From positions 124,372,001 through 124,436,000 of the forward strand of contig OZ024743.1 in the NCBI GenBank assembly GCA_964016885.1: a stretch of DNA of 64,000 nt. Reading direction: 5' to 3'. The notes below the pieces were generated by a model. It was not told the origin of the DNA. It saw only the letters and a program-made list of their open reading frames with translations, and did not search any database. Within the stretch, counting starts at the first letter, position 1. The number at the start of each line of letters is the position of its first letter. This document shows positions 10,034 to 63,424 of this stretch, in pieces. The position numbers were made by a program, and so were the translations under genes. The stretch comes from Eledone cirrhosa. Taxonomy: Eukaryota.

Positions 10034-11030
10034 ATTGTTATACTTTGGGAGGGTCATGTTGCCAATAAGAAACACACGCACCAGTTGCTTTCACTTCAAT
10101 TTATTATATATTTATAAATTTACAAATTTATAAATTTATAAATTTCTGGTTGGTTGGTTGATTCCACAACCAGATAGTTGTTTATATATAGTCATGTATA
10201 GATAAGAAATGTGTAACCTGTAAAATAAGCCCCCATATTAACTGTAAAACTAGAAATGTAGTATATAGCATAAGATGTACTGAAGGACAATGTAGAGACA
10301 AAAATATAGTGTACATAGGTGAGACAGCTCGTAGTGTATGGGAACGGATAAATGAACACTGGCGAGACCTTCAAGATAATAAAGAATCATCTGTACTCTA
10401 CCAACATGCTAAGATAGAACACAAGGGTAAATTAGAGAACATAGAAATAAAAATAGAATCTACACACAGAAAAGATGCAATGTTTAGACAAATTACAGAG
10501 GCAATAAACATAAAAGAATTACAACCAAAATTAAATAGAAAATATGAGTGGAACAGCAACATCACAACTTACAATTAAGGACAAAATGAAAACACACACA
10601 CACATAGAACAAACAACTAACCATGTAAATAAACAAATAGATAAATGAACATAAACACACACAGACACCCGGATGTGGCGCATGCGCAGACTGAGCACAC
10701 AACACACACACAGAAACAAAATGGCGTAGGACAGAACAAAGGAGAGGCACAGAAACAAAGAAAGGAATCCCCAGTCACTGAAGAGGTCACAGAGTGTGTG
10801 ACGAAAGAACTATGACTATATATAAACAACTATCTGGCTGTGGAACCAACCAACCAACCAGAAATTTATAAATTTATAAATTTGTAAATTTATAAATATA
10901 TAATAAATTGAAGTGAAAGCAACTGGTGCGTGTGTTTCTTATTGGCAACATGACCCTCCCAAAGTATAACAATATCGGTTTCAACACACGATTTCAGATA
11001 AAGAATCTTGCTAAACAAATTCAGAAACGA
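10034..11030 (+). mobile_element. 5'-truncated Penelope-like element (GIY-YIG endonuclease 3' end plus pLTR) with an inverted 5' arm, in (TA)n
   Basis: Frame from 10192: CIDKKCVTC...NCKTRNVVYSIRC...VYIGETARSVWERINEH...EAINIKELQPKLN (stop 10578); 10034-10195 is the reverse complement of 10812-10974. Confidence 0.9.
10773..10817 (+). ncRNA. Type I hammerhead ribozyme in Penelope pLTR
   Basis: Stem I agtca/tgact, core CTGAAGA, stem II gtcac/gtgac, GAAA, 2-bp stem III, cleavage triplet CUA after 10812. Confidence 0.8.
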
Positions 11031-11464
11031 TATATATATATATATGTATATATATATATATATATATATATATATATAACCAGTCAGTTCTTCGGAGCAT
11101 GCTCTGAAGAACTGACTGGTTATAATTTTGTATTGGCGATCGAGTAACGTGAAAACAAGCGAATAGCGATCTCTAGACCTACCAGTTCAGAGAAACAATT
11201 GTCAGCAATGAGATTAAAAACCTTTTTTGTATTGCAAACCATGTCAATCTTCTTTCCTGATTTATTATTAGTCCAAGTGTTTACAACATAGGAATTACAG
11301 CATACTCGCAACATCACTATGAATACGCCTTGTTGAGTCAAACCAAGCCTAGCGTTGATATCATCCACTACCCGGAATACCATAACTGGACTACACCTAA
11401 GGGGACTGGATATAACTATTATTTGTTACCCCGTATATATATATATATATATATATATATATAT

Positions 11465-11760
11465 TTCGTTTCTGAATTTGTTTAGGAAGATTCTTTATCT
11501 GAAAACGTGTGTTGAAACCGATATTGTTATACTTTGGGAGAGTCATGTTGCCAATAAGAAACACACGCACCAGTTGCTTTCACTTCAGTTTATTATAAAT
11601 TTCCGGTTGGTTGGTTGGTTCCACAACCGGATGGTTGTTCATATATTGTCAAAGTTCTTTCGTCACACATTCGGTGACCTCTTCAGTGACTGGGGATTCT
11701 TTTCTTTGTTTTGTGCCTCTCCTTTGTTCTGTCCTACGCCATCTTTGTTCTGTCCTACAC
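11465..11760 (-). mobile_element. Second, diverged solo pLTR of the same Penelope family, with HHR at ~11647-11691
   Basis: Reverse complement of ~10730-11030, including cagtcaCTGAAGAggtcac...gtgacGAAAgaac. Confidence 0.8.
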
Positions 11761-12299
11761 ACACAAAAACAAGAGGTCTAATAAGACCGAAATACCTTGA
11801 TTACTTGCTGAAATCAAATTAAAATTATATTAGTTATTGAGCTATTTTCTTTTCTTTTAGACGATGTATAACGATTGTTGAATATTTCCCAACAATGCTA
11901 CAACTAGTGAGGCTTGCGACGGAAAATGTTAATTATATTACAAACCATTCTCTAAGATAATTGGTTCGTCACGGCTGAAACGGATTTGATCATATATTTA
12001 CTCTATCATAGCTGACCTGGGGCTAAATAACATCACCCTACAAAATACATTGTTTGTATTATGATCAATATGTGCGTAGGTGTAAAACAGCATTTGGCAG
12101 AAGTTAAACATAACAACATTTTAATAAAACGGTTTCCAATTTTGGGAAATTGATTATATATTAAACACATGACACTGTATAGAAATATTTATACACAGTA
12201 CTTGAATAAAACACGTGACAGTGTGTAGATGTGTGCGTATATATTGAAACGTGTTGTGTGTACTTAAAAAGGATTATTACAAAAATATATATAACTGGC

Positions 12300-59518: not shown

Positions 59519-59691
59519 CAGGTAAAATTCCGCTATAACAAATACCATTATAACGAATTTTTCAGTATAACAAAAGTTTTTCAATTCCCGGCCACACGCA
59601 CGATGTGTTAAATCGATCTCGTTATAAAGAATTTTTCATTACAACGAATTTTTGTATACCCCGTGAATTTCGTTATAACGGAATTTCACTG
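59519..59691. mobile_element. pogo/Tc1-type MITE with TA TSD
   Basis: ta|caggtaaaattccgctataaca ... cgttataacggaatttcactg|ta. Confidence 0.75.
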
Positions 59692-62114
59692 TATAGGTCT
59701 GGGAGCAAGATATACACGAGTAGTGAGGTAGGATATTGACAACAAAGTTGAAGTCTAATAACTACACCCAGTAATGAAAATAGGCTCTAGGGTATAAAGT
59801 TTACTGGGAACTTATTGGATATTCTTGATAATAAATTGTGAAGCAGAAGAAACGAAGCGTAATCATTTAGTACTTGATATGATTAAATCTCTTACCACAC
59901 ACCATCCAGTTTGTGTGTGTGTCTATATATAAATCCTACACTCATAACTCCTCATGGACTCGTAGAGGTGGACTTGTAGAGGCACTGTAGTGTCAAGCAG
60001 AGTTTCTTGAGCAGAGAGAGAGAAGAGAGAGAGAGAGAGTGAGAGAGAGAGAGAGAGAGAGAGAGAGAGAGAGAGAGAGAGAGAGAGAGAGAGAGAGAGA
60101 GAGAGAGAGAGAGAGAGAGAGAAGAAATGAGAAAGATATATAGAGGAAGAATCAACTTCAATAACAGACTGGTACTTTCTTTATCGACCCCGAAAAGATA
60201 AAAGGCAAAGTTGACTTCAGTGGGTGTGCAAGGAGCCAGAATGAATATCGCAAAGCATTCTATCCAATGTTCTAATAACTCTGCCAATATATAATCCCCT
60301 AAATGGCTGACTAAACACACACGTGCTTTCTCTCCATAAACGTTATTCCTTTCCATTTCTTCTCCTTACTCTCGTCTACCTTTCTGTTTCTTCTTTTATC
60401 TCTCATTCTATCTTCTGATGAAAGACTAAAGCCCGAAACCTTAACACTATTTTCCTACTATATTAAGCCTTAAACTATGTATCTTCGCTGTGCTGTATTA
60501 TTTCTGTGTTTTTTATTCATTTACTTTTTACCAGAACACACACACACACACACACACACACACACACACACACACACACACACACACACACACACACACA
60601 CATACACACACACACACACACACACACACACATATATATTTATATAGGTGTTAAAAGTCATGCATGGTCAAGACCATATCGAATAGGAATAAAAAGTGGG
60701 AGTGTACAAGACAAAGACAACGGAAAACAGTCAGACCTTTCTCTTCAGTCAACGTCTGAAAATCCTTATAGTTTTGATGTTTTAAAGGTAATACTATTTA
60801 TTCCAGTGCAGACAGGACAGTAACAAGAGAAAACGGGGAGACATAAAGCACAGTATGTCTTTTTCACAAGCGAAGCAAAAAGATTCTTTTACAAATCAAT
60901 GTGCTTCAATTGAAAAGGAAGTGATAAAAAGGCGGTACGCAATAGCTTAGGCAAGAAGAAAAGAATAGAAAAATAATAGTCTTGACTGAAGTCCTAACAA
61001 AAGAGGGCACAAAGCGAGTGGTGACTTGTTTAGCCACCGACAGAAATGAGGCCGTGTGTAAATAGTCTAAGATAAAGAATGTGAAGGAGGAGAAGGTGGG
61101 GGGGGGGATAGGTAGAGACAGAAAGAAGCCAGAGTGAGACGGAGAGAAATGGAAAGAGATAAAGTCTATTTTGGGGTAGGTGCTAAAAAGTCATGCGTGG
61201 CTAAGACCGAGAAAAGTCCGACAGTCACTTCTCTTCAGTCAATTTCTGAAAATGCATATATTTTTGGTGAATTTAAGTCGATATAATTCATTCCAGTGCA
61301 GACAGGAGAGTAAATAGCTGGGAGGCATAAAGCAAAGTGTTTCTTTCGACAAATAACAGAAATAAAGCCCCCCCCCCCCCCCAAAAAAAAAAGATACAAA
61401 CCAAAGCATTAATATAGAGTTCACGCCCAAAGTTTGCCCCTAAAATTTGATTAACTGAAATTGTGGAATTTCTCTCATTTGTTTGCTGTTTTTAGATTTA
61501 AATACTTCTAAAGGAAAATTTTGTCTTTAAATTGAGAGGATAATCTTATTTGATTGATTTTTTTTTTCCTATCAACATTCACAGACTGTGAGGCTCTATC
61601 TTGAAACGTTAAGACTATTTTCCTATTATTTCAAGAGTTAAACTAATATCTTCATTGTATTGTAGAGTTTACTTTGTTACACGCACACACACACACACAC
61701 GCACACATACATGCATACATACATACATACATACATACATACATACATACATACATACATACATACATACATACATATATGTGTGTGTGGGGGAGGGGGT
61801 TGTATAACAAAGCAAACACTACAACACAATGAAGATATTAGTTTAACTCATGAAATAATAGGATGAGAAATCGACGTTGTTTGTAAATATACCGATTTTA
61901 AGGTGAATAATAAACCAATGAGCGGAGACCGCGGAATACCAGGTTGTTTGAATGTGCTAAATATAACAAGGTACTGGAGATATTCGCACAAAATCAGATA
62001 CCAACTTACATACTGAAGCATATCTGAGGATATTTCGATTCCAGTCAGGTTCGATCAATAATAGATCATTCCTCGAGTTGATTGACAGTGAAACATATGT
62101 AATATGTTATTAAA

Positions 62115-63090
62115 TATATACTATATATATATATATATATATATACTATATATATATATATATATATATATATATATATATAAATATATATATATATATA
62201 TACATATATATATATATATATATACATATATATATACATATATATATATATATACATATATATATATATATACATATATATATACATATATATATATATA
62301 CATATATATATATATACATATATATATATATATATACATATATATATATACATATATACATATTCATATATACATATACATATATACATATACATATATA
62401 TATATACATATACATATACATATATACATATACATATATATATACATATATATATATATATATACATATATATATATATACATATACATATATACATATA
62501 TATATATACATATATATACATATACATATATACATATATATATATACATATATATATATACATATATATATATATACATATACATATATACATATATATA
62601 TATACATATATATACATATACATATACATATATACATATATATATATACATATATATACATATACATATACATATATATATATATATATATATATATGTA
62701 TATATATATATATATATATATACATATATATATATATACATATACATATATACACATATATATATACATATATATACATATACATATATACATATATATA
62801 TATACATATATATATATACATATATATATATACATATATATATATATACATATACATATATACATATATATATATACATATATATACATATACATATACA
62901 TATACATATATATATATATATATATATATATGTATATATATATATATATATGTATATATATATATATATACATATATATATATATACATATATATATATA
63001 TATACATATATATATATATATACATATATATATATATATACATATATATATATATATACATATATATATATATATATACATACATATATA
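62115..63090. repeat. ~1-kb degenerate (TA)n/(TACA)n microsatellite
   Basis: Directly visible; source of the spurious 250-400 aa IY-rich ORFs. Confidence 0.95.
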
Positions 63091-63424
63091 TCAAAATGAA
63101 AATCTGAAGGCAAGGTAAAATTCCAATCATTTTAATCACAACACATGTTTCAATAAGAGATAGATCGATCGTAAAGCCATGATCAATTATCACTGATCTC
63201 ATCAGGTGAAAATGAATTGTCTTCAAATTCTTGATATGAGGGAGAAAATTAGCAATGTTCACTAATTTTCTCCCTCATATCAAGAATTTGAAGACAATTC
63301 ATTTTCACCTGATGAGATCAGTGATAATTGATCATGGCTTTACGATCGATCTATCTCTTATTGAAACATGTGTTGTGATTAAAATGATTGGAATTTTACC
63401 TTGCCTTCAGATTTTCATTTTGAT
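63089..63424. repeat. Perfect palindrome (~163-bp arms, 9-bp spacer) in (TA)n with an HHR-like motif in each arm (63305-63378 +)
   Basis: 63089-63252 is the reverse complement of 63262-63424; tcac-CTGATGA-long stem II-GAAA-catgtgtt-gtga. Confidence 0.85.

Follow-up and report, generated by a model that had tools for sequence, protein, structure and literature searches.

Penelope-like elements (PLEs) that carry an endonuclease (EN) are already known to leave head-to-head inserts with a one-sided tail, to bear hammerhead ribozymes in their pseudo-long terminal repeats (pLTRs) and, in the case of Neptune and Hydra, to target TA. How the inverted structures and tails of PLEs are formed has been named as an open question in the covered part of PMC8557442. 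An anole PLE studied in vitro makes nicks in AT-rich DNA on both strands and starts at two internal sites of its RNA; it is a predicted dimer, and it does not depend on ribozyme cleavage (PMC11167929). A preprint of 2026 (10.64898/2026.07.22.740005) has described retrozymes as non-autonomous PLEs, based on co-occurrence and pLTR phylogeny, leaving the mechanism open. Here, we report an analysis of 64,000 nucleotides of the Eledone cirrhosa genome (GCA_964016885.1, contig OZ024743.1, positions 124,372,001 to 124,436,000; hereafter, the window), in which an earlier note, made from the letters alone, had pointed to hammerhead-bearing fold-back inserts in (TA)n tracts. The PLE inserts found are a known kind of element, and the strict pairing of two fixed 3' ends in their two-armed copies is a well-supported new structural rule.

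Results

Each family examined has two fixed, family-specific 3' ends, referred to as long and short. In the Neptune-type family of the window insert at 10034, these ends are 58 nt apart, and all 13 two-armed copies among 21 loci combine a long end with a short one, with one of the 13 long ends being read through a small deletion. The ends are 95 nt apart in the Hydra-type family of the insert at 14765, in which the combination was found in all 14 two-armed copies among 18 loci, locus L179 being read as a single tandem insert. A further family, chosen by the Rfam model Hammerhead_1 alone, gave 18 matches in 17 loci, all of which meet TA downstream at +44 or +146; 11 of the 17 are two-armed, and all 11 are long plus short (one arm by eye). 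Among 11 loci of the family of the insert at 63089, four were cleanly long plus short and one had an aberrant short end. The pairing was also seen in a genome sample (799,800 bases in 80 pieces of 10 kb, taken at round coordinates), where 42 of the 683 segments reaching from TA to TA match one family at both ends: 33 are long plus short (six being the references themselves), none is long plus long or short plus short, and nine have another end.

The short-ended arm was the longer one in 3 of 13 Neptune-type, 7 of 14 Hydra-type and 9 of 17 retrozyme loci. Furthermore, four micro-inserts have arms that share no sequence, namely 21077-21181 in the window (family of the insert at 11079; long end on the minus strand, short end on the plus strand), 40667-40729 (63 nt; short end minus, long end plus), 56757-56837 (81 nt; long end minus, short end plus) and one in locus L032. 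Disjoint arms occur in the Rfam-picked family as well (L190, L195 and L200).

The same signature was found on an element without coding capacity. The array at 51001-55481, which is, judged by its sequence, a non-LTR retrozyme, is made of 310-nt units with one type I hammerhead each (14 in total) and has no frame of at least 100 aa. The left array (51001-52077, minus strand) holds 3.5 units and three hammerheads, and its long end meets TA 165 nt past the ribozyme cut; the right one (52076-55481, plus strand) holds 11 units and 11 hammerheads, with its short end at TA 139 nt past the cut, and the two overlap by 2 nt at the junction. The 310-nt RNA is predicted to be well paired (z -4.4), and its helix III is palindromic. 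We compared the window array with 18 loci (n = 19 with the window), chosen at 100% identity among the first 150 entries of a list of 446 matches. In 18 of the 19, a minus array is followed by a plus array with TA at both ends; the outer ends lie 163-169 nt (long) or 115-139 nt (short) past the cut, inner junctions fall at scattered phases, and the pairing was long plus short in 17 of 18.

A second retrozyme-like array, with a unit of approximately 422 nt and 15 descriptor matches, fills positions 1-10000 of locus L124, and a single copy related to it lies near 17149 of the window. At least half of the retrozyme words of 51700-52600 were present in 20 public sequencing runs (X1-X20; 18 organism labels, 17 studies); none of the runs listed was an RNA run. 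X4 and X5 each gave one 340-nt retrozyme contig at a depth of 26-34, and the sums for X1 were near 10^5. The presence of these words may be due to a high-copy repeat being carried over, to close relatives or to spread from species to species.

The earlier note had taken the inserts for many separate hammerhead RNA families; the families stand, but most of those that could be traced are 5'-truncated 3' ends, or pLTRs, of autonomous PLEs. Four window families trace by sequence to such elements, one Neptune-type and three Hydra-type, the clade labels being given by motif or EN likeness rather than by reverse transcriptase (RT) phylogeny. The Neptune-type family had 35,896 first-look candidates, of which 150 were scored at 97-100%. 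Locus L049 holds a 1167-aa frame with RT motifs, a CX4CxxC linker (CIDKKCVTC), a GIY-YIG domain and Cys/His residues in the EN, the RT motifs, the linker and the Cys/His residues being read by eye. The insert 10034-11030 is, by motif (linker and CCHH, as given in the covered part of PMC8557442), the truncated 3' end of a young Neptune-type PLE. Pfam assigned no family to the whole L049 frame, and its GIY-YIG score for the window fragment (10192-10578) was slightly below the cut-off. Both Neptune-type 3' ends fall inside the first 27 codons of the next open reading frame (ORF); pLTRs likewise end within the first codons of the next ORF in rotifer PLEs (PMC3846280, in the part covered) and anole PLEs (PMC11167929).

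An 867-aa frame with RT and, at its C-terminal end, a GIY-YIG domain lies upstream of the 14765-family repeat in L167, and copies of this family (L168 and L179) have a CxCX5C linker, RWK, DKT, no CCHH and a (TA)n target; by these motifs, 14765-16680 is the 3' untranslated region (UTR) of a Hydra-type PLE. For the families of the inserts at 35450 and 63089, ENs were found 0.7 kb and 1.5 kb upstream of the repeat in L174 and L172, respectively (one locus each), and the Hydra assignment is by EN likeness only (32-54% to Hydra-type ENs). No contiguous EN was found in the loci examined for the inserts at 14449, 22965, 32345, 40860, 47317 and 56283, five of which have the tail architecture, which is absent in 56283. 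Both PLE hallmarks, a hammerhead in the pLTR and a head-to-head 5'-truncated copy with a tail at one end, were found.

Some further observations concern the Hydra-type families. In many copies, among them L168 (3332-3865, minus strand), the Hydra-type element keeps a 178-aa antisense ATG frame across its EN end, which may be due to chance in a young family. In the 35450 family (L129-L140 and others), most arms end in the helix II loop, 20-30 nt upstream of GAAA and directly after a TTTAG that resembles, by eye, a splice acceptor. A hairpin-like ACTC...GAGT motif lies just beyond the short end in tails of the families of 35450, 32345, 14765, L109 and L098 (24 of 60 tails by raw count), and it is a candidate for the site to which the RT of Hydra-type elements binds.

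Because the Rfam models miss these hammerhead variants, we wrote our own type I descriptor and controlled it with reversed sequence. In the window, the best 150 of 229 Rfam matches included no hammerhead and were only of the microRNA (miRNA) type. The descriptor, which is blind to a helix III longer than 14 nt and to a long helix II, found 79 hammerheads in the genome sample and none in its reverse. Among 136 fold-backs in the sample, 61 had TA within 130 nt on both sides, compared with 6.3 expected and a maximum of 16 in 500 placements; 30 had it on one side and 45 on neither. After the removal of 21 array matches (three stretches), 22 of the remaining 58 hammerheads lay inside the 61 (2.1 expected). 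TA was present within 300 nt downstream of 51 of the 58 and upstream of 30, compared with 24.5% for random places. The hammerhead read outward in 29 of 29 matches within any fold-back and in 20 of 20 inserts. Moreover, 53 of the 61 were flush with TA at one end and had a 35-129-nt tail at the other (2.5 under the null), with the tail on the left in 25 and on the right in 28. The enrichment and outward polarity that the earlier note had predicted were thus both borne out, and its idea of a genome-wide, multi-family system using PLE machinery at (TA)n sites is backed by the sample and the family links. With 61 in 0.8 Mb (approximately 76 TA-flanked fold-backs per Mb), the total extrapolates to approximately 230,000 for the 3.0-Gb genome; the window, with 11 in 64 kb, is approximately twice as dense.

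We also examined the TA tracts. Of 1,700 tract borders, 861 have non-simple flanks. A family end that reads into the tract was matched at 173 of these (79 long, 76 short and 18 other), compared with 16 matches that read away from it. When library inserts are included, at least 260 of the 861 are element ends, and the earlier suggestion of a link with the microsatellite richness of the genome holds to that extent, although the tracts look pre-existing. Interrupted repeats match across the retrozyme insert in direct orientation at 9 of 17 loci and as mirror images (at least 15 nt) at 3 of 17; since direct matches outnumber mirrored ones, the tracts appear mostly to predate insertion, and the production of TA tails by RT as a rule was rejected on the same counts. 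Each insertion would split one TA tract into two. In L011, an interrupted TA flank of approximately 55 nt is mirrored on both sides of the retrozyme insert, and in L026, the interruption in the mirrored flank is itself palindromic.

The window (35% G+C, with many (TA)n tracts) was compared with itself, and all 11 fold-backs of the earlier note were recovered at their places. Arm identity was 83.8-100% in the ten non-array inserts and 98.5-99.9% in the array, a range in keeping with the long-running process that had been suggested. Mutual unrelatedness was mostly true, except that 22965 and 47317 are related (55 nt, 80%), leaving 10 families rather than 11. Five fold-backs pass the descriptor (10034, 14863, 40860, 51001 and 63089). 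Those at 14449, 22965, 32345 and 47317 contain decayed hammerheads, as judged by eye against intact relatives from the sample, two of the four having the U3-A8 core that has been described in PLEs of Schistosoma (PMC4209133); in 35450, a U3-A8 hammerhead with a long helix II is represented by its 3' half only, and no core was seen in 56283. Every readable hammerhead reads outward, as had been noted. The statement that most inserts contain one is at odds with the sample, where only 15 of the 61 have a descriptor match. A one-sided tail of 34-131 nt, outside the coordinates given earlier, is present in 10 of the 11 (not in 56283), and TA tracts border the inserts generally, except that 32345 has TA on the right only.

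The Neptune-type insert has a left arm on the minus strand (10034-10195), whose short end lies at TA and which is identical to 10812-10973 at 160 of 162 positions, and a right arm on the plus strand (10192-11030) with the GIY-YIG C-terminus, the 3' UTR, a hammerhead at approximately 10773-10817 cut after 10812, the next-ORF ATG at 10950, the short site at 10975 and a tail at 10976-11030 reaching the long end. A second, single-armed Neptune-type pLTR (11463-11753, minus strand) carries a hammerhead and has its long end at TA. A 38-nt Neptune-type micro-insert at 16759-16796, matched by eye to 10949-10972 and 11019-11030, joins 24 nt of the short end (minus) to 10 nt of the long end (plus) with disjoint arms. 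The Hydra-type 3' UTR (14765-16680) has two arms, with the long end on the left (tail 14765-14863), the short end on the right and intact hammerheads cut at 14916 (minus) and 16629 (plus). Two other fold-backs are Hydra-type pLTRs: 35450-35641, which has the hammerhead half in each arm and a tail at 35567-35641, and the perfect palindrome 63089-63555, with cuts at 63140 (minus) and 63374 (plus) and a 131-nt tail (63425-63555). A micro-insert of the 35450 family at 14158-14224, judged by eye against L037, has a short-end arm (minus) and approximately 11 nt of the long end (plus). A single-armed, frameshifted Hydra-type PLE at 38536-40640 (plus strand) contains part of the RT, a GIY-YIG domain with the CxCX5C linker and a decayed hammerhead near 40338, and it ends at TA.

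As for the fold-backs without an ORF link, 14449-14712 has its decayed hammerhead on the plus strand (approximately 14581-14631) and a tail at 14679-14712; 22889-23167 has a decayed U3-A8 hammerhead on the plus strand (23078-23115) and a left tail; and 32280-32447 has a decayed hammerhead with a 14-nt helix III on the plus strand and a left tail of approximate limit. The insert at 40826-41376 has a GAAAATT repeat core, a hammerhead cut at 41254 (plus), a decayed copy on the minus strand and a tail at 40826-40860; 47317-47748 is a near-perfect palindrome with a decayed U3-A8 hammerhead in both arms and a tail at 47711-47748. The oldest (84%) is 56283-56517, which is flush with TA on both sides and for which no relative was found in the sample.

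Elsewhere in the window, a frameshifted non-LTR element with RT and a C-terminal zinc finger/endonuclease-like region lies at 42927-46605, and a broken L1/Tx1-like element (RT, zf-RVT) lies at 17293-20450. A 115-aa frame at 3463-3810 (minus strand), which Pfam matched weakly (E 0.004) as ATAD4/PRR15-like, is perhaps a host exon. Two more fold-backs, at 29592-29665 and 61621-61863, have no TA flanks, and no relatives of them were found in the sample; 32460-33006 and 36846-37387 form a 549-nt inverted pair, 96% identical, spanning 4.9 kb.

Discussion

We consider it probable that the fold-backs are PLE and retrozyme insertions produced by paired target-primed reverse transcription on both strands of a nicked (TA)n tract, and we infer two priming events per insert. 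In this scheme, a complex of PLE RT and GIY-YIG, probably a dimer, would nick both strands of the tract, after which each of the two 3'-OH ends would prime within the RNA, one of them at the long site and the second 30-170 nt upstream of it, at the short site. Both primings would mostly use one template, each cDNA would stop at its own point, and the two free cDNA ends would be joined, often via 2-4 nt of microhomology, and filled in. The 310-nt retrozyme RNA, circular or multimeric, would be captured in trans by a similar complex, giving back-to-back arrays. Because the hammerhead lies upstream of both start sites, it would be carried along in both arms, and it reads outward since both 3' ends sit at the target; the ribozyme cut site differs from the insertion end.

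The long/short pairing, the fact that either arm can be the longer, the disjoint micro-inserts and the behavior of the anole PLE in vitro speak for this scheme. In 12 of 13 Neptune-type loci, the two arms resemble each other more than the median of the remaining loci, and in 10 of 13 they have locus-private variants in common, suggesting one template. Several points weigh against paired priming. Variants common to both arms could have arisen by later gene conversion. L017, which has two short ends, joins retrozyme arms of two subfamilies, so two templates do occur. Overlap at the junction, which speaks for paired priming, was above chance in Hydra-type (2.3 compared with 0.65 nt; 9 of 15 usable) and retrozyme inserts (1.5 compared with 0.7 nt; 13 of 18), but the means exclude gapped junctions, and in the Neptune-type family 3 of 12 were usable (P 0.07). 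Single-armed or unresolved copies make up 8 of 21 Neptune-type, 4 of 18 Hydra-type, 6 of 17 Rfam-picked and 1 of 19 retrozyme loci. Six window inserts are without an ORF link, and a PLE partner of the retrozyme was not found, none being contiguous in the loci examined. Frangieh et al. found the start site to be no different between strands in vitro (PMC11167929), an argument against strict coupling in that system, and the proposal of two primings rests here on genomic sequence.

A single priming followed by snap-back self-priming on cDNA or antisense RNA, with the hairpin resolved by the EN and a tail left on one side, is unlikely to explain these inserts, although it accounts for head-to-head arms, common private variants, junction microhomology and one long plus one short end. 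Self-priming was proposed by Arkhipova et al. 2013 (PMC3846280), and the tail was ascribed to EN-mediated resolution by Craig et al. 2021 (in the covered part of PMC8557442). It fits one window insert of another family, 11079-11433 (plus strand), which resembles a true snap-back, its long end being on the right and its left 25-nt arm being a hairpin of the 5' end instead of the family short end; this exception also counts against paired priming. Snap-back, however, demands that the copied arm lie within the template arm and that the long end stay on a constant arm, whereas either arm can be the longer one (7:6 in Hydra-type and 9:8 in retrozyme loci). Furthermore, the disjoint arms of the four micro-inserts and of the three Rfam-picked loci indicate that neither arm was copied from the other, contrary to self-priming.

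The earlier note had also considered a patching of fragile TA cruciforms. A reading in which PLE RT patches pre-existing breaks there, with the EN dispensable, is compatible with two-ended priming and differs in the source of the break. Both ends being flush with TA, and at least 30% of non-simple TA borders being element ends, agree with patching; we nevertheless give it a low probability, as the GIY-YIG domains of the linked elements come with Cys linkers, tied to TA targeting in the covered part of PMC8557442, and in vitro AT-rich DNA is cut by a PLE on both of its strands (PMC11167929). Cruciform patching is not supported by the data here; a TA-nicking GIY-YIG domain suffices.

Short palindromes in TA resemble Tc1/mariner miniature inverted-repeat transposable elements (MITEs). 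It is very improbable that the inserts are MITEs or foldback DNA transposons, which would have terminal inverted repeats and target TA, or that whole palindromes were moved: symmetric fixed ends and constant length were not found, since 53 of the 61 sample fold-backs are asymmetric and arms and junctions vary by locus, and the arms continue into RT/GIY-YIG frames in four families. Many copies of the 35450 family do have one junction in common, but that junction was part of the query, and the junctions of unselected copies vary inside a narrow zone. An assembly artefact from fold-back long reads, which the 99.5-100% identity of several arms would permit, is the least credible explanation, given the family-specific fixed ends, arms diverged by up to 16%, and the many distinct minus-to-plus retrozyme joints (14 of 15 shown) and TA loose ends in contigs of public run X1, which may be the source sample and whose joints bridge no junction of the window itself.

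Returning to paired priming, we regard as slightly favored a more general form of PLE integration, in which a single complex would prime on the two strands of the target, using two fixed sites in the same RNA. Animal retrozymes would be inserted likewise, two RTs travelling round a circular RNA and producing arrays that lie back to back, and repeated rounds, approximately 200,000 inserts in this genome by extrapolation, would divide (TA)n tracts and raise their number. Models with two primers can be told from models of self-priming by the pairing rule together with the disjoint micro-inserts, which also yield a sharp prediction that the in vitro system now available could address. The loci of the retrozyme are direct structural evidence of insertion in the manner of PLEs, and they show at which points of the RNA reverse transcription would begin. 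It should also be noted that the very many short palindromes in this genome would be mistaken for MITEs or miRNA hairpins. No report of strict long/short pairing or disjoint arms was found in the literature covered, with the older Penelope papers (2003-2006), which may hold a two-primer model, and supplements lying outside it; nor, within the same coverage, was one found of back-to-back retrozyme arrays or a PLE insertion signature on retrozymes.

Among the systems with which the inserts can be compared, L1 twin priming uses primers from opposite target strands and gives an inverted 5' part and junction microhomology, as proposed or seen here; L1 starts at poly(A), with the second primer at variable sites and parts that do not overlap. 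Here, by contrast, there is no poly(A), neither of the two sites varies, and one stretch of the RNA is usually copied into both arms, so that the arms overlap. Minimal PLE hammerheads (Cervera and de la Pena 2014, PMC4209133) have, as here, an extra nucleotide before helix II and the U3-A8 core, but some families here have a helix II of 60-75 nt; the opposite-strand motif pairs 100-700 bp apart in Schistosoma are a further likeness, described in an analysis that did not extend to polarity, TA flanks or paired ends. Non-LTR retrozymes (Cervera and de la Pena 2020, PMC7229834, in the part covered; Li, Clavereau and Pollet 2026, in the preprint cited above) have the same non-coding tandem units of approximately 300 nt, type I hammerhead, palindromic helix III and proposed PLE dependence, and in the text covered of both, neither arrays lying back to back nor (TA)n targets nor paired ends at fixed sites are described. 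The closest likeness is to EN-bearing PLEs of the Neptune and Hydra types, which, in the covered parts of PMC8557442 and PMC3846280, have a C-terminal GIY-YIG, a pLTR hammerhead, an inverted 5'-truncated head-to-head copy, a tail at one end, a pLTR reaching into the first ORF codons, (TA)n targets and clade motifs in common with those described here. The published tail is optional and 30-40 bp long, whereas the tails here measure 30-170 nt and their pairing with a short end is strict, and, in contrast to the elements in print, the arms here may be disjoint. The anole Poseidon PLE in vitro likewise has two internal start sites that bound the tail and nicks on both strands (PMC11167929); no inverted products and no strand-specific choice of start are reported for it, whereas the genomic pattern here implies a coupling of strand and start site.

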